Made by a program: the position numbers and the translations under genes. The notes under the pieces were generated by a model, which did no database searches, was not told the DNA's origin, and saw nothing but the letters and a program-made list of their open reading frames with translations. Positions 9,340 to 53,322 of a DNA stretch of 64,000 nt are shown here, piece after piece. This DNA comes from an uncultured Bdellovibrionales bacterium. Its GTDB lineage: Bacteria; Patescibacteriota; Minisyncoccia; Moranbacterales; UBA1568. The stretch's first letter is position 1; each line of letters starts with the position of its first letter. Location: contig CAZCNN010000001.1 of assembly GCA_964500505.1 (NCBI GenBank), positions 131,826 to 195,825 of the forward strand. Reading direction: 5' to 3'.

Positions 9340-11301
9340 TTACCCAAAAAACCCAGCCACCTGAGTCACCAAGACCAGGGCTGCGAGAGCAATAGCGATA
9401 GCGATAGTAGCATAGGTCACGATCTTCTTGCCTGTTTCTGCCTTGCCTTCATCTCCTCCAGCCGTGAGATACATGAAGCCACCGATAACAAGCATGATGA
9501 TCGCGATGATGCCGACGATGGAGAGGAGGAAGCTTAAGACCTTAGAGGCTATCTCAGTAAAGGTTTGGGCTTCTTCGACGACTTGGGTTACTTCTATCCA
9601 GCCTAAAAGTTCTCCAATTTCTTTGAGGAAGGCAGGAGCAGCGATAGCGAGAGCGAGACCGACTACCGAAGCAGTGATAGCCACTTTGGCTTGAGAGACT
9701 CGTGATTCATTCCCGGCCGAGAGGATATACATGACCGCTCCTACGATAATCATGATGATAGAGAGGACGACGATGATACTTTGGAGCGTTGAGAGGACGG
9801 CAGTTAGCACGCTGTCTAGGGAGTTGTACTTGAGGGGGTTGAAGTAGCCTACTCCAGGAGAAGGGAGGGCGAGTGGGGCACAACAAGAGAGTCCGGTATC
9901 ACCACAGGTGCCAGGGGCAGGCTTGTATTTATCAGGTGCACACCCTCCTGAAACACAGGTATTGGGTGATTGGCAGGTGCCGTCGCCACCAGGGGAACTG
10001 GGTGATCCTGGTGACGGTGATCCAGGTGGGAGGGGTGGAGGCGGGGTATTGTTACCTTCTACCAAGACAGTAACTCCTCTTTTCGGACCACTGCCCTTTG
10101 ACTTGGTAGGGTCTTGACAAAACAGAATATATTCCGTACTCACCTGAGGAGAAACAACCAATGATCCTTTCTGCGTACCACTGGCTGTTGATGGACTGGC
10201 CAGTGGCTCTCCACTCATATTCCGATTATCCCACAGTGTACAACCAAAAAAAGCTTCGTGTTTAAACTCCCAAACAAGCGTAACAGATTGGCCGGGGTAG
10301 ATCTGTTGAGGTGGGGCTGGCGAGGCAAAGAATTTGACGATAGTAGTAAAGTATCCAACCTTCACCAAAGCTCCCTTGATCTGCGCATTCGGATGAGAGC
10401 CGGTCTCAGTAGCTACTCCACTACTATCGAGACACCGCAGATTATAATACCCGGTCTGGGTCGGCCATCCTTCAATACTCCCATTCACAGAGACATCTTG
10501 CCAGTCAGACCAATTTGGATCGTAATCCGCTTTCATCTGACAACTCACTGCTCCTGGTGCCTCCCACGAAATCTCCGTGGTGTTTCCCAGCTCTATCTCA
10601 TCAGGATTAGCATCTATATCGATGGGAATATTAGGAGAAGAAGGGGTGCCATTCGAATCCTGACATACACTGTTAAGCCCATCTGGGTTGTATACATAGC
10701 CACTTTTACACCGAAATTCACATTTTTGATTCGTATCCGTTTCAGAATAGGTCCATGCGACACTACCCGTTACATTATCCGTATCATTAGGATAAACTTC
10801 GACATTATCCCCATATGGCATTTGCCCGGTACAGGAGAAATTCCCTCCTCCTACTACCGTAATATTGACCACTGGAGAGGCTGACGTATAGGTAGATAAG
10901 TCGCTACTGACATATCCACAGCGAAATTCATAGATAGTGTTTTGGGTAGGGGTGTAAGAAAATACTTTTTTCGTCAACTCATCATGGAACTCAGGGGCTG
11001 AAGTAGCGCGGATTATCTCTGAATATCCGCTACTATCCGAGATAACACAGGCTAAAGGCTGATTAGAAAGGTTACTTGGCGTGCTGGAGACATGATATAT
11101 GATCCTAATAGTCTCCCCCTTATTAATGGTTGCCGTTGATGGCACCACCCCTTTCGTATCATCCCAACGATCCATGTAAATAACCCAGCCATCAGTCGCA
11201 AGAGATACGGGTGAAGTCAGTCCAAAACTCATGATGAGTCCCATGATGCCTCCGAGGAAGAGGGTTCGAAGATGGGTGTGGGTACATGGGGTGGGTGACA
11301 T
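9340..11301 (-). CDS. Large secreted/surface protein: signal peptide, roughly 400-aa extracellular region, Pro-rich linker, Cys-knot, two tandem TrbC/VirB2-like (T4SS-pilin-like) 2-TM modules (paralog A)
   Basis: Probable start MSPTPCTHTHLRTLFLGGIMGLIMSFGLTSPVSLA (ATG at 11299-11301). C-terminus has two repeated modules, IVGAVMYILSAGNESRVSQAKVAITASVVGLALAIAAP and VIGGFMYLTAGGDEGKAETGKKIVTYATIAIAIALAAL. Linker PPPPLPPGSPSPGSPSSPGG. Paralogous to the gene at 28455-30410. Confidence 0.7.
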   Translation of the reverse strand: MSPTPCTHTHLRTLFLGGIMGLIMSFGLTSPVSLATDGWVIYMDRWDDTKGVVPSTATINKGETIRIIYHVSSTPSNLSNQPLACVISDSSGYSEIIRATSAPEFHDELTKKVFSYTPTQNTIYEFRCGYVSSDLSTYTSASPVVNITVVGGGNFSCTGQMPYGDNVEVYPNDTDNVTGSVAWTYSETDTNQKCEFRCKSGYVYNPDGLNSVCQDSNGTPSSPNIPIDIDANPDEIELGNTTEISWEAPGAVSCQMKADYDPNWSDWQDVSVNGSIEGWPTQTGYYNLRCLDSSGVATETGSHPNAQIKGALVKVGYFTTIVKFFASPAPPQQIYPGQSVTLVWEFKHEAFFGCTLWDNRNMSGEPLASPSTASGTQKGSLVVSPQVSTEYILFCQDPTKSKGSGPKRGVTVLVEGNNTPPPPLPPGSPSPGSPSSPGGDGTCQSPNTCVSGGCAPDKYKPAPGTCGDTGLSCCAPLALPSPGVGYFNPLKYNSLDSVLTAVLSTLQSIIVVLSIIMIIVGAVMYILSAGNESRVSQAKVAITASVVGLALAIAAPAFLKEIGELLGWIEVTQVVEEAQTFTEIASKVLSFLLSIVGIIAIIMLVIGGFMYLTAGGDEGKAETGKKIVTYATIAIAIALAALVLVTQVAGFFG

Positions 11302-11326
11302 AGAAGAATGCTCCAAGTGAATTAAA

Positions 11327-12526
11327 TTATGATGTGTACGTATGTGTGGCCTCGGGATGAACCGTAGTATCATGAAGGAAGCAAGTTTCAAAGAGTGCGA
11401 CGAAGAGGACGATGGCCACGAGGAAGAAAATACTCTGCACTGGGAAGACAGCGAGCATCAGTGCTGAGAGGAGTGCGGCCAGGATATTAGCGACGGGCCG
11501 AGCGGTCCGGAAAAACGCAATGATATCCATGTCATCAGGACCAATCTGCTTGTAAAAGTACGAGTCACGAAGGATCTCGATACCCGCGATACCGACCCGG
11601 GTCATAAAGAGGGCCGTCCCCCACACCACGATGTCACCCGGCGCGAGAAATGGCAGGATAAAGGTGGCTGCGGCTGCGATGGCAATACTCCCGATGAGCA
11701 TCTCTTTCTCTCCGAAATAGCGATCAGCCAACCTCCCGAGTGGGTACTGGAGGAGGACAAACGGGAGGAGCATGACGGTAAAGATGATCCCAATCTCACT
11801 CCAGGCAAAACCACTCTCACGGAGATAGAGAGGAGTGTAGACAATCATCAGGGCATAAAAGAACTCAAGCGCGAGCGATACGTGGTAGATTCGGGACAGA
11901 TTCCGCGAAGCGAGCATCTTGCCGAACGTCGCCCGAAATCGAATTTTCTTCTGAATGGTCCGATTATCCAACCGAAAACCGACCAACGTGGCAATGAAAA
12001 TGATGGTATAGCCAATCACCAAGGCCAAAAAGATCCCGCTGTAATCATAGGATTCAAGCGTTTTCACCGAAAGAACTGGAGCAATGAGGAGCCCCGCGTT
12101 CATGATAGTGAGGTAAAGACCCCGGATACTTCCCGACACCTTATCCTCCGAAAAGCTCTCAAGGAGAATATCGAGTGTCACCCAGGTCACATTGGTCGCG
12201 ATAAGGAGAAGGAGTGCTGCCCCAAGCGAAATGTAGGCCGAGGTCGCCGACGCGAGAACCGCAGAAGCGCAGATCGAGAGACCGAGTGAGAGATAGAGGG
12301 CGCGAGCCCGTCCGATAATCCGAATCAGGGGCTGGAGATAGAAGAGACTTCCCAAGACGACGACGTAGGCAAGGAGGTAAAAAACACTAACATTGTCACT
12401 CCCTGATACCTCTGCAAAAAAAGTCGAAAGGATGTAAATAAAAAAAGCGTCGAGAAAACCGAACACGAACGATACGGCACTCACGAAGCGAACTTTTTTC
12501 TTGTTGAGATTTTCTTTGTGCGGCAT
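11327..12526 (-). CDS. MFS-type transporter
   Basis: About 12 predicted TM helices in a 6+6 layout over 399 aa. Confidence 0.65.
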   Translation of the reverse strand: MPHKENLNKKKVRFVSAVSFVFGFLDAFFIYILSTFFAEVSGSDNVSVFYLLAYVVVLGSLFYLQPLIRIIGRARALYLSLGLSICASAVLASATSAYISLGAALLLLIATNVTWVTLDILLESFSEDKVSGSIRGLYLTIMNAGLLIAPVLSVKTLESYDYSGIFLALVIGYTIIFIATLVGFRLDNRTIQKKIRFRATFGKMLASRNLSRIYHVSLALEFFYALMIVYTPLYLRESGFAWSEIGIIFTVMLLPFVLLQYPLGRLADRYFGEKEMLIGSIAIAAAATFILPFLAPGDIVVWGTALFMTRVGIAGIEILRDSYFYKQIGPDDMDIIAFFRTARPVANILAALLSALMLAVFPVQSIFFLVAIVLFVALFETCFLHDTTVHPEATHTYTS

Positions 12527-27891: not shown

Positions 27892-28095
27892 TTAGAGTCC
27901 GTAAGCAGTCGAGAGCGTGCTCAAGAAAAACGGGACTGCAAAAACAAGACCAATAAGAGGGAGTACAAACGTGACGAGCGTCGCAATCATCGTCCACAAG
28001 AAATACTTGCGCGTCTTCTCAACAGACTGATAGATCTGCTCGAGCCGTTCATCCTGCGCCTCCAGTTTTTTCTTGAGTTCTGGGTCCATACCCAT
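27892..28095 (-). CDS. Small membrane protein (67 aa, 2 TM), hypothetical
   Basis: Charged N-terminus then two hydrophobic helices; tightly packed after the zinc-ribbon ORF. Confidence 0.35.
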   Translation of the reverse strand: MGMDPELKKKLEAQDERLEQIYQSVEKTRKYFLWTMIATLVTFVLPLIGLVFAVPFFLSTLSTAYGL

Positions 28096-28155
28096 AGTAT
28101 AGCACTCCTTGAGAAAGAAAAAAGGAGGTCCAGGAAACTCCCATAACCTCCAGAG

Positions 28156-28434
28156 CTACTCCATCTGTGCCTCTCCGCGCTTGCGCGGAGCCACTTCACT
28201 CACTTGTGGTGAACGACGCAAACCATCACCCATGTGTCGCACGGGGTCAGATTCAGCAAACTGTACTGCTGGGGCATCCGGTACCCCTTGGTACTGATAT
28301 CGCAGGTGCCACTCGTCACGACACGGAAGCGAGCACAGTCGAACTTCGTACAAGTCGTGATAGCCATCAGCCCAATCAAATGTCCCCTTACACTGAGGAC
28401 ACACAGCGATATATACAGCCATCTTGTCCTCCAT
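28156..28434 (-). CDS. Small zinc-ribbon protein (CPQCKG...CSLPC), hypothetical
   Basis: Four Cys in CxxC...CxxxC spacing. Start placed at M9 (28434) to clear the upstream stop; an ATG at 28422 is an alternative start. Confidence 0.4.
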   Translation of the reverse strand: MEDKMAVYIAVCPQCKGTFDWADGYHDLYEVRLCSLPCRDEWHLRYQYQGVPDAPAVQFAESDPVRHMGDGLRRSPQVSEVAPRKRGEAQME

Positions 28435-28454
28435 GTTGGTTCGAAAGAACGAGA

Positions 28455-30410
28455 TCACCCCCCAAAGAACTTCGCCACCTGAGAGATGATAACGAGAGCT
28501 GCAAGAGCCACCGTGATACCAATAAGGGAGTATTTGACGATAGATTTACCGGTATTGATCCGGTCTTCATCTCCAGTGGCCGTGAGGTACATGAGGCCTC
28601 CAATCACGAGCATGATAATCCCGATGATACCAATGACTGAGAGGAGGAAGTTCAGGATCCCTGTAAGAATCTCGGTGATACTCTTGGCACTGTCTGCTGG
28701 GCTACCATCAACCGCTCCCCAGCCTAAGATAGCGCCAATCTCTTTGAGGAATGACGGTGCAGCGAGAGCGAGAGCAAGGCCAATGAGAGCGGCGGTAATA
28801 ATGAGTTTGCCGGTAGAGAGCTTGGAGTCATTGCCTCCGGCCGTCATGTAAACTATGGAGCCAATCACAATCATGATAAGAGAGAGGATGACGATAATCG
28901 CTTGGAGGAAGCCTAAGAGAGAGGTAAGAATCTCATCGACGGTATTAAAGGCTAAGGGGTTACTAATGGGGATAGTGTAGAGGACGGCTTCAGAGCCAGT
29001 TCTCGCAAGGCAACAGACTCCCGTACCATCTTTGGTCCGACCGACCACTTGTTCGGTGGCGTCGTTACAGCTCGCTTTGGGGGTGCCTACATCACATTTG
29101 CTGTTGTCGGTGGGAGGATTGCCAGGAGCTGGTGAGCCTGGTGGCAGAGGAGGTGGAGTATCACCAGAACCAATTGTAACCTGGACAGTCTCTTTAGGAC
29201 CAAATCCATAAGCGCCGTCCTGCCGTTGACAAAAGAATATATAGGTTGTTGTTGCTTTTGGCGCTACAACCCGACTCCCAGTCTGGGGACTATTATCCTT
29301 CGCTACAAATAAAACAGCATTATTGCCAAGTTGTCCATCATTGCGTGTGTTCTCCTCCAACCTACAATTAGTGCCGTTTTTGATACTCCAGAAGAGAGTG
29401 GTCGTCTCCCCTACTGTTTGGAGAGATAAAGGCTCAGCATAAAAATCCAAAATTTGTGGATAAAAACCAACATTTACATAAGCAGAAAAGTGAGGGCCAT
29501 AATTACTCGTAATAGCCCCTACGCCCTTACTATCAACACACAGCATGTTATACGCCCCAGATGCAGTAGGCTGAGAGGTCATACTACCATTGACTGGGAC
29601 ATCGACCCAAGATGCGAGATTTGAATCTTGATCTGCCTTTATTTGACAACTCACTGCCCCCTGAGTTATCCAAGACAACTTGGTTGTTTCACCTGGTTCT
29701 ATGTATTGTGGATTGGTAGTAAGAGATATGTAGCTTACCTCGGAGACTGATGGAGGAGGACCAGAAGAAGCCTCTATGCAAGCAAAATTACCTAGTTGAT
29801 CCTGACCCGGGACATGATTGGGACCACAATGCCACTCACACTTACGAGCAGTATCCGCCACACTATATATCCAAGACGTATCGGCTAGGACATCGATACT
29901 ATCAGTAGGATATATCTCTATACCACTCGTTACTAGCCATGGTTCGAGTCCCGTACATTTGCCATTGGCGATGACATTAACCGTTACCTCGTCATACAAA
30001 AGGTTCTCTTCGGCAAGATACGCATACCCGCAACCAAGGCGATACGTGACCTGTCCAAGTGATGTTGGGATAAAAATACGTGGCTGAGTATGAATCGGAT
30101 GAAATTGATCCTGGATATCGGGTACCATCGAATCTGGATCAAAATACAGAGTCGCAGTTGCTACCTGTCGATAGCCATCACTGCTAGTAAAAACACATTG
30201 CTTTGGCTCGGTATCACGAGGGAACTGGTCAGCTTGGATGAATAACTCCACTTCTTCGCCAAGTCCAATTGTAGCCGGACTCTCTAAAACAAGATCAACA
30301 GACTCATTTGCTGCTTGCGCTGAAGTGATGAGACCGAGACTCATGGTAAAACCTAGGCCACTCACTAATAGCAAATTTCTAAAATACGCCTTGCATGAGA
30401 TAAATGGCAT
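28455..30410 (-). CDS. Large secreted/surface protein with C-terminal tandem TrbC/VirB2-like 2-TM modules (paralog B)
   Basis: Signal peptide MPFISCKAYFRNLLLVSGLGFTMSLGLITSAQA, shared domain (SCQIKADQDSNLASWVDVPVNGS, cf. SCQMKADYDPNWSDWQDVSVNGS in paralog A), linker TPPPLPPGSPAPGNPPT, Cys-knot, then IVIGSIVYMTAGGNDSKLSTGKLIITAALIGLALALAAP and VIGGLMYLTATGDEDRINTGKSIVKYSLIGITVALAAL. Confidence 0.7.
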   Translation of the reverse strand: MPFISCKAYFRNLLLVSGLGFTMSLGLITSAQAANESVDLVLESPATIGLGEEVELFIQADQFPRDTEPKQCVFTSSDGYRQVATATLYFDPDSMVPDIQDQFHPIHTQPRIFIPTSLGQVTYRLGCGYAYLAEENLLYDEVTVNVIANGKCTGLEPWLVTSGIEIYPTDSIDVLADTSWIYSVADTARKCEWHCGPNHVPGQDQLGNFACIEASSGPPPSVSEVSYISLTTNPQYIEPGETTKLSWITQGAVSCQIKADQDSNLASWVDVPVNGSMTSQPTASGAYNMLCVDSKGVGAITSNYGPHFSAYVNVGFYPQILDFYAEPLSLQTVGETTTLFWSIKNGTNCRLEENTRNDGQLGNNAVLFVAKDNSPQTGSRVVAPKATTTYIFFCQRQDGAYGFGPKETVQVTIGSGDTPPPLPPGSPAPGNPPTDNSKCDVGTPKASCNDATEQVVGRTKDGTGVCCLARTGSEAVLYTIPISNPLAFNTVDEILTSLLGFLQAIIVILSLIMIVIGSIVYMTAGGNDSKLSTGKLIITAALIGLALALAAPSFLKEIGAILGWGAVDGSPADSAKSITEILTGILNFLLSVIGIIGIIMLVIGGLMYLTATGDEDRINTGKSIVKYSLIGITVALAALVIISQVAKFFGG

Positions 30411-41571: not shown

Positions 41572-41600
41572 TTGTCAAGGGTACGGTTTTGCGGTAAAAT
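41572..41600 (+). promoter_or_regulatory. Candidate sigma70-like promoter for acd (TTGTCA-17 nt-TAAAAT)
   Basis: TTGTCA at 41572-41577, TAAAAT at 41595-41600, about 35 nt upstream of the ATG at 41635; the region is divergent from the beta-helix gene. Confidence 0.4.
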
Positions 41601-41634
41601 AGAGACACAAAATAGCCTAAAACAAACACTCCGT

Positions 41635-43740
41635 ATGAATCTCCATCCTCTCTTTTCTCCGCGTTCTATCGCCGTCGTCGGTGCTTCGACCAAAGTCGGC
41701 AGTGTCGGCTCAAGTCTCACCAAGAACCTCCTCTCCTACGGCTACACCGGGCACATCTACCCCGTCAATCCCAAAACTGACCGTCTCTTTGATCTCCCCT
41801 GCTACCCCAGCCTCTCCGATATCAAGGAAGAAATCGATCTCGCCATCATCATCATCCCGGCTGCCCTCGTACCAGCCGTACTCCGGGAAGTCGGTGAAAA
41901 GGAAATCCCCGCAGCGGTCATCATCTCATCAGGATTCAAAGAGACCGGTGCCGACGGTACCACACTCGAGGATGAAGTTCGTGAGATCGCCGAAGAATAC
42001 AACATTGCCCTCCTCGGACCCAACTGTCTTGGCTTTCTCCATCCCGCGCTTGGTCTCAATGCCTCGTTTGCGAGTGGTATGCCCAAAGTGGGGGGTATCA
42101 CCTTCTTTTCCCAAAGTGGCGCCCTCTGTACAGCCCTCCTTGATCTCTCGGCGGGACGACTCGGATTCTCAGCCTTTGTGAGTGACGGCAACAAGGCCAT
42201 CCTCAGCGAAATAGAGTTCCTCGAGTACTTTGCCCAGGATGAAGAGACGAAAGTGCTCTCCTTCTACGCGGAGGGTATGCGCGATAGTGAACATATCATC
42301 GAGACTGGTCGCGCCATCCTCGCTCGCTCCGAGCCCAAGCCCGTAATCGCACTCAAGTCCGGCACCACCGATGCCGGGACCGCCGCCTCAAGCTCACATA
42401 CCGGGGCGCTTGCTGGGAGTAACGCTGCCTATGAAGCCCTCTTCCGTCAAGCTCGCATCATCCGCGCCGAGTCCCTCCAGTCACTGGCCAACCTCCTCAT
42501 GGTCTTTTCTCGCAATCCCCTCCCCGAGGGGAAACGGATTGGGATCATCACGAACGCCGGTGGTCTCGGCGTCCTCGCTACCGACATGGCCTCGCAGTGT
42601 GGCCTCACCCTCGCCACCCTCTCCGGAGAAACCGTCACCGCCCTTGACCCTCTCCCACCCTCGGCCTCGCGACACAACCCGGTCGATGTCTTGGGTGATG
42701 CTCCAGCCGACCGCTATCGTCTTGCCCTCGAGGCACTCGCCCGTGATCCCGAAGTCGACATGCTCCTCGTCATCATCACTCCCCAAACGACGACTGAGGT
42801 ACGTGACACGGCGCTGGCTATCGTCGATACCAAACATCATACCGAGAAACCGATCGTCGCTATCATGGCCGGCGCTGGCGCCTTTGCCGAAGGGATAGCG
42901 ATCCTCGATGAACACGAAGTAGCCGTCCTCACCTATCCCGAGGACGGGGCTCGTGCCCTTGGAGCGCTCGCTCAGGTCGCCAATTGGCGCACACACCAAC
43001 TCTCTACTCCGTTTGCCTGGAGTGATATCGACCGAACCAGCGCGCAGAAGATTATCAAACAGGTGAGGGCTGATGGACGGACCACGCTCTACGAATCCGA
43101 AGTCTGGGACGTCCTCTCGGCCTATGGGTTTCAGTTCCTCCGAAGTGCTACGGTACACAGTGCCGACGAGGCCAAAGCGGCGAGCCGGGATTTCACTGGT
43201 CCGGTCGCCCTCAAAATAGTCTCCCCCGATATCAGTCACAAGTCTGATGCTGGTGGTGTCATGCTCAATGTCAAACCAGAAGAGGCTGGGGAGCAGTATG
43301 ACGCGCTCCTCGCCCGAGTGGCCGAACATGTGCCCGAGGCCAAACTCGAGGGCGCGCTCATGGTCGAGATGGCCGAGACCGGTGGTCGTGAGATTATCCT
43401 CGGGATGAAAGAAGAGCCAGGACTCGGCCAGCTCCTTATGGTGGGACTCGGTGGTATCTATGTCGAGACCTTTCATGATGTGGCGTTCCGCTTTGCTCCA
43501 CTCACCGAAGAAGACGCCCGTGAGATGTTGAGTGAGCTTGAGAGTCTCCCGCTCCTCACTGGTACTCGGGGGCAGGCTGGCATCGATATGGACACGCTTC
43601 TCGGTGCCATCGGCCGGCTCTCACTCCTTGTCCGCGACTTCCCAGAAATTGCCGAACTCGATATCAATCCCCTCCTCGCTTTCCCCGAGGCCTCGCGTTT
43701 CCGGGTCCTCGATGCCCGCATCCGATTGAAAGAAAGCTAG
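41635..43740 (+). CDS. acd: Acetyl-CoA synthetase (ADP-forming), fused alpha/beta
   Basis: CoA-binding N-terminus RSIAVVGASTKVGSVGSSLTKNL and a C-terminal ATP-grasp; about 700 aa. Confidence 0.85.
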   Translation: MNLHPLFSPRSIAVVGASTKVGSVGSSLTKNLLSYGYTGHIYPVNPKTDRLFDLPCYPSLSDIKEEIDLAIIIIPAALVPAVLREVGEKEIPAAVIISSGFKETGADGTTLEDEVREIAEEYNIALLGPNCLGFLHPALGLNASFASGMPKVGGITFFSQSGALCTALLDLSAGRLGFSAFVSDGNKAILSEIEFLEYFAQDEETKVLSFYAEGMRDSEHIIETGRAILARSEPKPVIALKSGTTDAGTAASSSHTGALAGSNAAYEALFRQARIIRAESLQSLANLLMVFSRNPLPEGKRIGIITNAGGLGVLATDMASQCGLTLATLSGETVTALDPLPPSASRHNPVDVLGDAPADRYRLALEALARDPEVDMLLVIITPQTTTEVRDTALAIVDTKHHTEKPIVAIMAGAGAFAEGIAILDEHEVAVLTYPEDGARALGALAQVANWRTHQLSTPFAWSDIDRTSAQKIIKQVRADGRTTLYESEVWDVLSAYGFQFLRSATVHSADEAKAASRDFTGPVALKIVSPDISHKSDAGGVMLNVKPEEAGEQYDALLARVAEHVPEAKLEGALMVEMAETGGREIILGMKEEPGLGQLLMVGLGGIYVETFHDVAFRFAPLTEEDAREMLSELESLPLLTGTRGQAGIDMDTLLGAIGRLSLLVRDFPEIAELDINPLLAFPEASRFRVLDARIRLKES

Positions 43741-48722: not shown

Positions 48723-48791
48723 CCAGTTTTCTCTCTTTATCTTTTGTTTTTCAACTTTTCCCTGTATCTCCACCTATCTCCCATCTCTTTC

Positions 48792-48826
48792 GGCTCCCGA
48801 AATCGCGGTCGCGAATATACGAGCCA
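48792..48826. repeat. Repeat copy 1: GGCTCCCGAAATCGCGGTCGCGAATATACGAGCC
   Basis: Direct repeat of 49401-49434, with the central GGTC replaced by GACC (inverted core) and a C/G difference near the 3' end. Confidence 0.7.
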
Positions 48827-48836
48827 TCATGCATGT

Positions 48837-49382
48837 ATGAGACTTGGACCAACACAGCAAAAGATACTTCTCCTGCTTCTTGGTGGACTCGCCCTTGGTT
48901 GTTCTTTCTCACCAAAAACCAGTTTTCGTGTTGTCAAACTCGTGCACCGGGGATGGCGGGACATCAATCAGAAGAATCTGAATCGATCTTTACGACTCCT
49001 TTATACCCAACAGCTGATCACTGATCGAAGGAACCCTGATGGATCTATCTCTCTCATTCTGACGCCAGAAGGAAAGCGCCAAGCCACACTCGGACAACTC
49101 CTCGGTCTCAAAATTAAAAAACCAAAGCGTTGGGACCAGCTCTGGCGCATCGTGCTTTTTGATATTCCAGAAAAACACAAAAAGTTTCGCGATATTTTTC
49201 GCTCTCACCTCAAAGCCATCGGCTTCCATGAACTCCAGCACAGTGTCTTTGTTTTTCCCTTCCCTTGTGAAAAAGAGATACTATCATTGGTCGAACTCTA
49301 TCATGCCACACCGTACGTTCGCTTCATTACTGCCAAACATATCGATAACGAGTCGACGCTCAAAAAGAAATTTTCTTTATAG
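48837..49382 (+). CDS. Winged-helix regulator-like protein with a PaaX C-terminal-like block (WDQLWRIVLFDIPEKHKKFRDIFRSHLKAIGFHELQHSVFVFP)
   Basis: Start at ATG 48837; resembles the PaaX-family C-terminal motif (WDGxW..V.F.VPE..R..R..LR..L...GF..L...VW). Confidence 0.5.
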   Translation: MRLGPTQQKILLLLLGGLALGCSFSPKTSFRVVKLVHRGWRDINQKNLNRSLRLLYTQQLITDRRNPDGSISLILTPEGKRQATLGQLLGLKIKKPKRWDQLWRIVLFDIPEKHKKFRDIFRSHLKAIGFHELQHSVFVFPFPCEKEILSLVELYHATPYVRFITAKHIDNESTLKKKFSL

Positions 49383-50671: not shown

Positions 50672-52261
50672 TCAGTCTGGCGTTTCGTCGTCGGGGTCGA
50701 GCGGGGTCATGACAGTGCCGTTACCGAGCACGGCCGTCTTCCCGTCACTCACCTGGTCCAGGCGATAACCTTCACGACCGACTTCGACCAACTTGACGCC
50801 GTCGCACCACCAGCCGTAGCCGGGTGCTTCGCCACCATGAAGGAGATCAAAGTCGAACCCTATGCCAACACCACAGACCCTGAGGGGGTCCGAGATGCCA
50901 AGGCGCAGATTGGCCGTCTGAGAGAACGGGAGTTCACTGAAGAACCCTACCCGTGCCCAGAACGTCGCGAACTTCGCGTCGTAGATGTCCTGGTGGACAC
51001 CGGCCTGAAACACCACGCTGTGGCGCTCCAGTTCCGACGCGTCAGTCGGTTGCAAGAAGTTGCTCGCCGTGGCCCGCACTGAGGTCGGGATACCCACGCT
51101 AGCGTAGATGCGCGTTTCCGGCATCCACTTCTTGCCCGCCAAACGATTCGAGTAATCGTTGTAAGCCACCGAAGCGCCAACAAAATCGATTTCCCGTTCG
51201 TTGCGGTACTGTGCCTGGCTGAATGCCTGGTGCATGTGGCCAAAGAGCAACTTGCCCTCTGCCGTCCAGCCCTTGTCGCTGATCCGCTCAACAGCAGGAC
51301 CAAAGGCGAGTGATTGACCGTGAGCCCTTCCGGACCCAAAGTTCACGCGCACATCCCACCATGAGTTCTGGAGGCCGACACCCCACCCCGTGTAGCCGTC
51401 CCCAACCCGCTTGATGCAGTACAGGGCAGCCGTCACAAAGGTTGAGTGAGACTCGTTGCCGTTGTCGTTCGGCTCATGCTCTTGTCCGAACACGAGCTTG
51501 GGATCAAGGAGGCAACGCCTCTCTGCAACCACCGTCTTCGGCGGGATGACGAGCTCGCCGATTTCTTCCTCTTCCACCACCTTTTTGCGAGGTGGTATGA
51601 CGAGCTCGCCGATTTCTTCCTCTGCCGTCCGCGTTGTGATTGCAGGCGGGAGTGGCGTACCAACGACCCAGTTGTTGCAATTACGTACCCAGTGGAAGAC
51701 CTTGCCACTCTTGAGGATGTAGGTCCTCGCGAGCACCACGGTCTTCTCGCTCCAATCGGCCAAAACGTTCTTCTCGAACGACACCTTGCCGTCCTTACAG
51801 AACGCCACTGCCTGGAACCGATCACCGGGCTTGAAGAAGGTGTATGCTGGATGTGGTTGAGCCGACACCAGTCCGCGGAGTTCGGATTTCTCCTCGTCCG
51901 TGAGACCCATCTGGGTCCACGCTTCTTCATTCAGCACCGCTTCGGTCTTGTTGCCGCAACCATAGAGCGGTGCGCCCCCGACCTTCTTCCAGCGAAATTC
52001 GCCGGCTTCGGTCGAGGCAACTGCCGACACGGACCGCGTACGGACACCAGCCGGGAGGATATAGCTCTTCCCAGCGATGATGCCGTTGCAATTCGTGATA
52101 CGACCAGCGACCTTGTTGGCGTCGCACACCGCTTGGGCATGCTTGCCGAAAACCGCTGACAGCGTGTCTCCGCGCTCTGCCCGATACTCGGACTGAGTCG
52201 CGTGTGCACCACCCACTCCGGAGAGCAAAGCAGCGCACAGAGGAATCATGAGCCATTTCAT
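50672..52261 (-). CDS. Exported protein with an N-terminal LysM-like motif, a tandem 17-aa repeat and a beta-rich C-domain (island gene 2)
   Basis: Signal peptide MKWLMIPLCAALLSGVGGAHA; YRAERGDTLSAVF...SYILP resembles LysM; EEEIGELVIPP occurs twice; C-terminal about 270 aa has alternating hydrophobic/aromatic strands. Confidence 0.55.
   Translation of the reverse strand: MKWLMIPLCAALLSGVGGAHATQSEYRAERGDTLSAVFGKHAQAVCDANKVAGRITNCNGIIAGKSYILPAGVRTRSVSAVASTEAGEFRWKKVGGAPLYGCGNKTEAVLNEEAWTQMGLTDEEKSELRGLVSAQPHPAYTFFKPGDRFQAVAFCKDGKVSFEKNVLADWSEKTVVLARTYILKSGKVFHWVRNCNNWVVGTPLPPAITTRTAEEEIGELVIPPRKKVVEEEEIGELVIPPKTVVAERRCLLDPKLVFGQEHEPNDNGNESHSTFVTAALYCIKRVGDGYTGWGVGLQNSWWDVRVNFGSGRAHGQSLAFGPAVERISDKGWTAEGKLLFGHMHQAFSQAQYRNEREIDFVGASVAYNDYSNRLAGKKWMPETRIYASVGIPTSVRATASNFLQPTDASELERHSVVFQAGVHQDIYDAKFATFWARVGFFSELPFSQTANLRLGISDPLRVCGVGIGFDFDLLHGGEAPGYGWWCDGVKLVEVGREGYRLDQVSDGKTAVLGNGTVMTPLDPDDETPD
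51546..51647. repeat. Two tandem 51-nt repeat units inside island gene 2 (encode EEEIGELVIPPRKKVVE / EEEIGELVIPPKTVVAE)
   Basis: ATGACGAGCTCGCCGATTTCTTCCTCT occurs at 51546 and again at 51597. Confidence 0.7.
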
Positions 52262-52366
52262 GGCGTCACTCCTTGTGAATACGGTTGAGAAGCCAGGATT
52301 GGACTACGTGAGCAGCCCAAGTCCTGGCACGAATGCCTAACTTTTTGGCTACTTTCATTTCCTTTC

Positions 52367-53218
52367 CTAGTTACTCTTTTTCGCAAGGCAGTCCTCCTGA
52401 GTGGCAACATGAATGTTGCGCACCAGAGAGATCGCCACGAATACCGGGATCAAGCCTGGCGAGACCGTGAACGATCCGCAGGAAATGACCCGGTCGGCCA
52501 CCGAACTGAGATTGGTGAACTTGCCCATGATCGTCTTGGCATCTTTGGTACCAGAGTACCAGATGTCATTGACCACCAGGGTTTCGCTGAAGCGCCACTT
52601 GAGATACGAAATGATCGGATCGGGGCTCTTCAGCGTAAGAACCTGGCGCAGGTCAGAGGGATGTTCACGGAAAAAGCCCTGGGGCAGTTGCCGCAAATCC
52701 TGACCGACTGGCAGTGTCACCATTTTCTTGCGCCCCGTCATGAGCCACGTGCCGTCAGACGACACGATGACCAGGTGCCCCCGGAGAGCCGCAGCCCGTT
52801 CCAGTGGCAGATTGACGAAGAACATCCGGTAGTCAGGATGAAAGATTGCATCGAAGAGCTCAAGCAGCCTGCCATCCTCGTTGTAGAGCAAAGCGCGCTC
52901 TACTACACGGACCAGTGGCTTTGACACCACCTTGCCATCGACCTGCTTGGCCGGATAGACGCGCCCTTCATCGACCAGCTCGTTTTCCCACTTGAGAGGG
53001 AACGGCTCTGGCAAATTGAATGGCGCTACGGCCAGCGTCTCGATGGCACTGACGTTGCCCATCAACGTCACATTGTGCCATGGCTCCTGACGCACTACTT
53101 CAGCCGACTTCGGCTGCACAGTGAATCCAGAACCCTCTTTGATGCTCGCGCATCCCGAAAGGACAACGAGAGCAACGGAGGTTACAAGAACCCCCGTCAA
53201 ACGACGAATATTGTTCAT
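52367..53218 (-). CDS. Hypothetical lipoprotein (island gene 3)
   Basis: MNNIRRLTGVLVTSVALVVLSGCAS lipobox; start at ATG 53216-53218. Confidence 0.55.
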   Translation of the reverse strand: MNNIRRLTGVLVTSVALVVLSGCASIKEGSGFTVQPKSAEVVRQEPWHNVTLMGNVSAIETLAVAPFNLPEPFPLKWENELVDEGRVYPAKQVDGKVVSKPLVRVVERALLYNEDGRLLELFDAIFHPDYRMFFVNLPLERAAALRGHLVIVSSDGTWLMTGRKKMVTLPVGQDLRQLPQGFFREHPSDLRQVLTLKSPDPIISYLKWRFSETLVVNDIWYSGTKDAKTIMGKFTNLSSVADRVISCGSFTVSPGLIPVFVAISLVRNIHVATQEDCLAKKSN

Positions 53219-53322
53219 GTGACCTCCAGAGTGAAATGACATCACGCCTACATCCGACCGGACATAAGCGTTTTAACACTAAAACTGATAGACAGATTGT
53301 TAAACTACAACATTCGAATCTA

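Follow-up and report, generated by a model that had tools for sequence, protein, structure and literature searches.

Two large surface proteins with a C-terminal double T4SS_pilin module and a strain-variable ectodomain in a Candidatus Moraniibacteriota bacterium

Introduction

Why would a bacterium fuse pilin subunits to the end of a large extracellular protein, and does the product still belong to a pilus? The question is raised by gene A (9340..11301, minus strand), which lies in a 64,000-nucleotide stretch of contig CAZCNN010000001.1 (assembly GCA_964500505.1; hereafter the window) and encodes a polypeptide of 653 amino acids (aa) with a predicted signal peptide, a variable ectodomain, a Pro-rich linker, a Cys-rich domain and two units of the Pfam family T4SS_pilin. 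A description made from the sequence alone (the original prediction) had presented A as a surface protein ending in two tandem modules resembling TrbC/VirB2, the pilins of type IV secretion systems (T4SS). We conclude that A and a second gene product, B, are probably Sec-exported surface proteins of an ultra-small bacterium of the Candidatus Moraniibacteriota (Patescibacteria, candidate phyla radiation (CPR)). The reading that we favour, and to which we give an even chance, is that of a variable adhesin whose VirB2-like double pilin becomes part of a T4SS pilus or docks to it.

To our knowledge, all cultivated Patescibacteria are obligate epibionts. A T4SS and its array of VirB2-like pilins are essential in the one patescibacterial species tested, Southlakia epibionticum (Wang 2023, PMC10633639). 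Predicted VirB2-like pilins are widespread and arrayed in Patescibacteria (PMC12102498, PMC12857230), and have been described as small proteins encoded by arrays of separate genes (PMC10633639, PMC12102498). No T4SS adhesin was detected in Patescibacteria in the survey of Quinonero-Coronel (2025, PMC12102498), and we found no description of a fused pilin-ectodomain architecture in the published literature.

Results

Identification of the C-terminal double pilin module

Profile searches identified the C-terminal 170 aa of A as two fused VirB2-like pilin units of the family T4SS_pilin (PF18895). Full-length A matched this model in two stretches (E=1.4e-17, 63.9 bits), and the units scanned separately scored 32.2 bits (unit 1) and 50.0 bits (unit 2), each above the gathering cut-off of 26.6 bits, so that both qualify as members of this patescibacterial family, and chance is no credible source of the match. 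Unit 1 (9598..9852, minus; aa 484-568) contains an NPL motif, a helix, the loop YILSAGNESRVSQAK, a second helix and the string AAPAFLKEIG, and unit 2 (9343..9597, minus; aa 569-653) an acidic linker, a helix, the loop YLTAGGDEGKAETGKK, a second helix and a C-terminal FFG. Hydropathy analysis of A gave four membrane-length hydrophobic segments within aa 494-653, which form two repeats. Identity between the units is 27%, the positions L, I, M, G, Y, G, K, A and G being common to both repeats of A and both of B, and the Lys that follows each loop is nearly invariant in the family, as are Gly and Pro positions.

Structure prediction of the C-terminal part with AlphaFold2 (AF2; 114 sequences, mean predicted local distance difference test score (pLDDT) 82) returned a three-stranded mini-domain followed by two helical hairpins, at aa 495-527/532-565 and 581-613/618-652, with four-residue turns and a pLDDT of 82-96 in the helices. 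Each pilin unit is modelled as a long hydrophobic helix, a short loop with the nearly invariant Lys and a second helix. The tandem hairpins proposed in the original prediction were recovered in both ways, as a pilin match above threshold in each unit and as a duplicated hairpin in the predicted structure.

An exchangeable ectodomain between signal peptide and linker

The open frame of gene A extends over 9340..11391 (minus). The ATG at 11301 is its likely start because a GGAG lies 9 nt 5' of it, the preceding major facilitator superfamily (MFS) transporter gene has its stop at 11327 and the same Met is the start in the orthologues P0002 and P0003; a protein identical to A (P0001) was also found in another metagenome. 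The N-terminus carries a predicted Sec-type signal peptide (11197..11301, minus; aa 1-35) with a hydrophobic region at aa 14-32 by hydropathy, small residues at positions -1 and -3 in an AXA-like site read from the sequence, and a predicted cleavage after VSLA. It is followed by the ectodomain (10048..11196, minus; aa 36-418), with four putative all-beta domains, each with paired Cys, and by the Pro-rich linker PPPPLPPGSPSPGSPSSPGG (9982..10047, minus; aa 419-440). All strings quoted in the original prediction were located in A, PPPPLPPGSPSPGSPSSPGG at aa 420-439, the six-Cys stretch at aa 443-474, MYILSAGNESRVSQAK at aa 524 and MYLTAGGDEGKAETGKK at aa 610, and the large extracellular region that it had placed upstream of the module corresponds to about 385 aa with regularly paired cysteines.

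Nucleotide comparison with the nearly identical sister strain L001 delimited the ectodomain sharply. Identity was 96.5% up to 11204, at the end of the signal peptide; the sequences were essentially unalignable from 11203 to 10047; and 97.3% identity resumed at 10046, where the Pro-rich linker that forms the 3' edge of the variable region starts, and continued through scpA and scpB. In six further proteins (P0004-P0009), an A-type tail at 86-97% identity stands behind unrelated ectodomains, with linkers rich in Pro or Gly at the corresponding position, and across proteins with unrelated ectodomains the module itself is 86-99% identical. Two proteins are mosaics: P0002 combines an A-type ectodomain (93.5%) with a B-type tail (97%) at a third kind of locus, and P0003 a third ectodomain type with an A-type tail (99%) in the slot of A between the MFS gene and scpA of a sister genome. 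This slot holds different ectodomains in four genomes. Judged from these alignments, the ectodomain of A is an exchangeable, strain-variable cassette bounded by the signal peptide and the Pro-rich linker. Assembly chimeras were considered as a source of the mosaics and are unlikely, because A and B share no long identical DNA and the syntenic comparison uses independent assemblies.

In two further genomes the slot contains two genes, of 603 and 592 aa in one and of 240 and 519 aa in the other. The second large gene in each (L009, 10669-12447, 592 aa; L011, 2576-4135, 519 aa) ends in a single pilin unit resembling unit 1, and a gene of this kind is absent from the window.

In Foldseek searches, domains 3-4 of the ectodomain matched strings of immunoglobulin (Ig)/FN3-like domains of surface fibres, for example, the grappling hook protein GhpA and pb4 of phage T5. 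A Sushi/CCP match (PF00084) at aa 179-218 (window 10648-10767) scored 20.7 bits, exactly at the cut-off, in a four-Cys stretch that AF2 modelled with a pLDDT of 27-44; the same stretch is identical in a chimeric fragment (P0266).

Gene B, an old paralog of A

Gene B (28455..30410, minus) encodes 651 aa in the same layout as A, with a four-Cys variant region (C-x8-C-x17-CC) and a tandem pilin module (28458..28973, minus; unit 1 about aa 480-564, unit 2 about aa 565-651). The second paralog that the original prediction had placed some 17 kb from A is thus confirmed, at a separation of about 17.2 kb and with 37% identity to A over the full length (BLASTP, E=1e-116). B matched PF18895 in two stretches (58.3 bits) and scored 226 bits with the module profile in hmmsearch; the modules of B and A are 55% identical. 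An identical copy of gene B adjoins murB on a contig from another metagenome. Recent gene conversion between A and B was ruled out, the longest exact nucleotide match being 14 nt and identity at third positions 0.2-0.6, and sequence comparison places the two as old paralogs.

The lowest G+C of the window was found in the 2-kb bins 10001-12000 (0.486) and 28001-30000 (0.487), against about 0.52 elsewhere, and both bins hold ectodomain-coding parts of A or B. An open reading frame (ORF) of 100 aa with a CPQC...C..PC motif (28156-28458, minus) overlaps the stop of gene B by 4 nt; on the matching metagenome contig, genes of 88 and 67 aa are called between B and the HPF gene.

Distribution and genomic setting of the module

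A search with the 170-aa module against 1.84 billion representative proteins (50%-identity clusters) gave 11,849 matches at E<=0.001 and 245 at E<=1e-30, and nearly all of the top 150 span the whole tandem module in one stretch. The module stands at the extreme C-terminus in 242 of 256 collected proteins with a full tandem module, which bears out the mention in the original prediction of a Pfam family at the C-termini of CPR proteins. The parts N-terminal to it range from almost nil to more than 500 aa and reach at least 300 aa in only 24 of these proteins. A scan of species-representative genomes contained 281 relatives, mostly from metagenome-assembled genomes (MAGs) of Moraniibacteriota.

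Genomic settings were counted over 80 kept loci. In seven of them, a VirB4 homologue is encoded 1.0-1.5 kb downstream of the tandem gene on the same strand. One such locus (L067) has the order single-unit pilin, tandem pilin, PrgI/VirB3, a 228-aa ORF without Pfam match, VirB4 and a membrane protein, the 228-aa ORF being taken, from its sequence, to be TrsD-like; with the genes in this order, the tandem gene stands where virB2 classically lies. In 52 of the 80 loci, the tandem gene is part of an array of at least three (mostly four to eight) pilin genes. All module genes lie on one strand in 51 of these arrays, and the tandem gene is the 3'-most in 51. At the remaining loci the tandem gene is single or paired, often with a long N-terminal part, and the lineage of the window belongs to this group.

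On the opposite strand just past the pilin arrays of other Moranbacteria, two adjacent genes without Pfam family were seen (L003, 12804-15338; L005, 12345-14946; L006, 11205-13267), and the window contains no counterpart of them. Those of L003 and L005 encode about 514-533 and 323-325 aa and are 44-50% identical between the two loci; those of L006 encode 363 and 313 aa and have no detectable similarity to the other pairs. Other relatives are fused chains that are in effect whole pilin arrays in one polypeptide, with seven units in P0119 (606 aa) and six in P0086 (552 aa) and P0106 (555 aa).

Chains of this kind would point to a closed oligomer no less than to an open helix, and they bear on a different reading, which we regard as quite unlikely, in which the units sit in the membrane as part of the channel or stalk of a monoderm-type T4SS, not of a fibre, and the ectodomain is a receptor-binding or wall-penetrating appendage. 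The nearest NCBIfam model, NF045849, describes the Mbov_0395 family of pilin-like conjugal transfer proteins from integrative and conjugative elements (ICEs) of Mycoplasma, which may work in this way. A and B each matched it in two stretches, but their scores of 31.4 bits (E=1.1e-7) and 30.2 bits are below the cut-off of 40 bits. Patescibacterial T4SS are relatives of the monoderm MPF-FATA systems, in which VirB2 pilins are missing (PMC12102498); however, the many divergent pilin genes of the arrays recall, as argued in the same survey, the variable pilus subunits known from Bartonella and Anaplasma, and no stoichiometric partner is encoded near A or B.

A Cys-rich mini-domain preceding the module

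Between linker and module, A carries a six-Cys mini-domain (9874..9981, minus; aa 441-476) of the pattern C-x5-C-x4-C-x11-C-x6-CC, with its Cys residues spanning aa 443-474, which conforms to the framework C-x(4-8)-C-x(3-5)-C-x(9-13)-C-x(4-7)-CC and is modelled by AF2 as three beta strands (pLDDT about 83). At least six Cys just before the module are found in about half of the family, and 90 of 122 such members end in CC. A profile of 55 of these domains searched against all PDB sequences gave 21 matches, of which 19 were beta-defensins (best E 1.1e-4), and a control with the non-Cys residues shuffled and the Cys framework kept gave none. Defensin_beta was matched by 19 of the 55 relatives, and three of 10 rescanned relatives, at 31.8, 31.0 and 25.9 bits, passed the cut-off of Defensin_beta (PF00711, 21 bits) or Defensin_beta_2 (PF13841, 22.2 bits); the domain of A itself scored below threshold (13 bits, E=0.11). 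P0016 and P0198 are among the relatives with a six-Cys domain of beta-defensin spacing. The 'Cys-knot' of the original prediction stands as a six-Cys stretch, and is refined here to a mini-domain that appears beta-defensin-like at the family level, a lead and not a demonstration. Only cis-defensins have been reported in bacteria, and a solved structure of the domain would be worthwhile, since trans-defensins are regarded as confined to animals (PMC11561630).

Such a domain could also be the active part of the protein, a membrane- or lipid-II-binding warhead against the host envelope that the pilin module and ectodomain only deliver or target. The almost exclusive match of the profile to beta-defensins, abolished by shuffling, the three relatives above the Pfam cut-offs and the presence of a Cys-rich domain beside the tandem module in about half of the family are consistent with this idea. 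We consider it highly improbable, however, given that in 70 of the 256 family members the module is preceded by no Cys at all, that B has just four there, that the Cys-rich domains are not notably cationic and that the copy in A reaches only E=0.11.

Surroundings and origin of the window

The 53 ORFs of the window scanned against Pfam are housekeeping genes, including those for cell wall and division (ftsA, mraY, murB, murC, murG, ftsW, ddl and PBP2) and secA, scpA, scpB, enolase, PGK, CTP synthase and tRNA synthetases. Genes A and B sit among them, next to scpAB and murB, respectively. Elsewhere in the window, two adjacent ORFs of 529 and 292 aa without Pfam match (50672-53245, minus) fall in a bin of G+C 0.571, the 529-aa protein having an N-terminus like that of a signal peptide and containing the segment EEEIGELVIPP(R/K)K twice; the bin of highest G+C (0.588) holds a gene resembling ADP-forming acetyl-CoA synthetase (41572-43740, plus); and the product of 48744-49382 (plus) is a small protein in which a PaaX central Cas2-like domain was recognised.

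Many of the closest MAGs (L007-L013 and others) bear the title 'uncultured Bdellovibrionales bacterium'. This label was set aside as probably wrong, because cluster relatives (at least 90% identity) of the seryl-tRNA synthetase and enolase of the window are labelled Candidatus Moraniibacteriota and the gene content is also patescibacterial.

Discussion

The domain family itself was already known. New are its fusion into proteins of this build, the three kinds of locus in which the fused genes occur, the hypervariable cassette with its sharp borders and the domain resembling beta-defensins. In the reading that we favour, A and B would span the membrane four times, with the ectodomain, the acidic linker between the units and the C-terminus outside and both loops in the cytoplasm, a topology that we infer from the predicted N-terminal signal peptide. 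VirB2 and TraA pilins share this topology until they are extracted into the pilus, as seen from F- and T-pilus structures. The double unit may act as a covalent pilin dimer, either assembling together with the single-unit VirB2-like pilins of patescibacterial T4SS or docking onto them. In this way the pilus or its base would display a variable adhesin recognising the host cell, and recombination at the conserved signal-peptide and linker flanks would swap its specificity. A and B would then be dispersed, ectodomain-expanded derivatives of the tandem pilin gene that relatives carry at the virB2 position or at the ends of arrays. This reading draws support from the PF18895 match of both units, the predicted pair of hairpins, the relatives beside PrgI/VirB3 and VirB4 or in pilin arrays, the strong conservation of the tail, the exchange of ectodomains as cassettes and their likeness to Ig/FN3 strings of surface fibres.

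Several observations weigh against this reading. The TrbC/VirB2 likeness of the original prediction held for PF18895, and for the canonical family only below threshold: PF04956 (TrbC/VirB2) scored 20.0 bits on unit 2 of A (E=8e-4; cut-off 27.9 bits) and was not listed for full-length A at E<=1, and A, with two pilin units behind an extracellular part of about 480 aa in a protein of 653 aa, is not the small single-unit precursor (about 100-120 aa) of that family. On the side of kinship, PF04956 was matched by 14 of 114 relatives (best E 1.7e-10), and when a profile of 48 single units was compared by hhalign with eight annotated VirB2/TrbC genes from MPF_T plasmids, the helix-loop-helix aligned in register over 65 columns (E=2.9e-4), though the probability reached just 40%. 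A relation to canonical VirB2 is thus plausible but weak at the level of sequence. PDB sequence searches with the module and its profile matched no pilin chain, tblastn of the module against 72,556 plasmids gave no match, and fold searches were uninformative, being unable to tell a pilin hairpin from other helical hairpins. The AF2 model of the ectodomain is shallow and of low confidence (pLDDT 57 overall, usable only in the all-beta domains 3-4, at 75-88) because only four homologues were found among 5.8 billion proteins. An ectodomain of 385 aa on every subunit could also hinder helical packing, and incorporation may therefore be sparse or confined to the tip. We know of no PF18895 protein that has been shown to form a filament, nor of a reported pilus for the Mycoplasma ICEs from which the nearest NCBIfam relative comes. 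In the literature, PF18895 proteins are described as predicted pilins with the potential to elaborate pili (PMC10633639, PMC12857230).

The surroundings of A and B point the same way. None of the 53 ORFs of the window belongs to the VirB4, VirD4, VirB6 or VirB11 families in Pfam, and a phmmer search of the window with PrgJ of pCF10, a VirB4 homologue, found nothing, as the original prediction had said of T4SS genes in the window. The module profile found only A and B, and no single-unit pilin gene, in all six frames of the window, and the 10 kb beyond its left edge contain only housekeeping genes, with no T4SS or single-unit pilin gene. A look-up from the right edge led only to a 4.4-kb contig, the remaining genes of which are already part of the window. 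T4SS genes or pilin arrays nearby are a feature of relatives, not of A and B in the window and left flank.

This position among housekeeping genes (scpAB, murB), away from T4SS genes and pilin arrays, fits the main alternative, in which the double module would now serve simply to anchor the protein by four helices. A and B would then be adhesins or S-layer-like proteins that remain in the cytoplasmic membrane and whose Pro-rich stalk spans the wall, with no pilus or T4SS involved. Four hydrophobic helices suffice to anchor a protein, wall-spanning Pro-rich segments are usual in monoderm surface proteins, and the long-ectodomain forms are found mostly outside arrays. The conservation of the module, however, at 86-99% and extending to the loops and to Lys, Gly and Pro positions that hardly vary, exceeds the needs of a mere anchor; the tandem arrangement has been kept over hundreds of clusters; and relatives occupy the virB2 position or pilin arrays. 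We regard a static anchor as possible, though doubtful.

A bolder form of the proposal that A and B act at a T4SS pilus would have covalently doubled VirB2 subunits build or decorate the T4SS pilus of Moranbacteria and carry both strain-swappable host-recognition ectodomains and a true beta-defensin-fold domain. We think this unlikely. If true, subunits of the A/B type would be the adhesins not yet found for patescibacterial T4SS, and their Cys-rich domain, which might touch the host envelope, would be the first of the trans-defensin type known from bacteria. A pilin with an exchangeable ectodomain is a concrete, testable candidate for host recognition and its rapid variation, a swappable outer domain being a plausible way for epibionts to vary what they adhere to, and the tandem and six- to seven-unit fused pilins constrain how units pack against each other.

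Comparison with known systems

A and B share with the PF18895 pilins of Patescibacteria the Pfam family, with both units of A above the cut-off, the helix-loop-helix unit and a predicted signal peptide, and their relatives lie in multi-gene pilin arrays and beside PrgI/VirB3 and VirB4. They differ in fusing two units behind a beta-defensin-like knot, a Pro-rich stalk and a strain-variable Ig-like ectodomain of about 385 aa, and in being dispersed among housekeeping genes with no T4SS gene nearby. With canonical TrbC/VirB2 (PF04956; the T-pilin and RP4 TrbC, with F TraA as a structural analogue) they have in common two hydrophobic helices, a short basic loop and a predicted Sec leader, besides the virB2-virB3-virB4 order in relatives and the weak in-register profile match, whereas A falls below the PF04956 cut-off, has 653 aa against about 100-120, duplicates the unit and comes from a monoderm organism.

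The LPXTG-anchored adhesins PrgB/Asc10 of monoderm conjugation are likewise large, extracellular and adhesin-like, with a stalk and a presumed role in cell-cell contact for a T4SS, but A and B are anchored by a pilin-derived four-helix module instead of sortase/LPXTG and have no sequence relation to them; Patescibacteria are not reported to have a homologue of PrgB (PMC12102498). Beta-defensins (PF00711, PF13841; animal trans-defensins) resemble the mini-domain in the spacing C-x(3-6)-C-x(3-5)-C-x(9-11)-C-x(5-6)-CC, in the conserved G-x-C before Cys4 and in the predicted three-stranded sheet, and the family profile matches hBD1-3 and crocodile and chicken defensins. The copy in A, in contrast, is a domain inside a bacterial membrane protein and not a free secreted cationic peptide, and it scores below threshold; convergence is a possible alternative source of the likeness. 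The variable VirB2/VirB5 paralog families of host-adapted T4SS (Bartonella Trw, Anaplasma; cited in PMC12102498) offer a further parallel: in these multigene families of pilus components the core is conserved and the exposed parts vary, which has been read as host-range or antigenic variation. Whereas those systems vary the pilin itself or a VirB5 protein at the tip, variation in A and B lies in a fused ectodomain swapped as a cassette.

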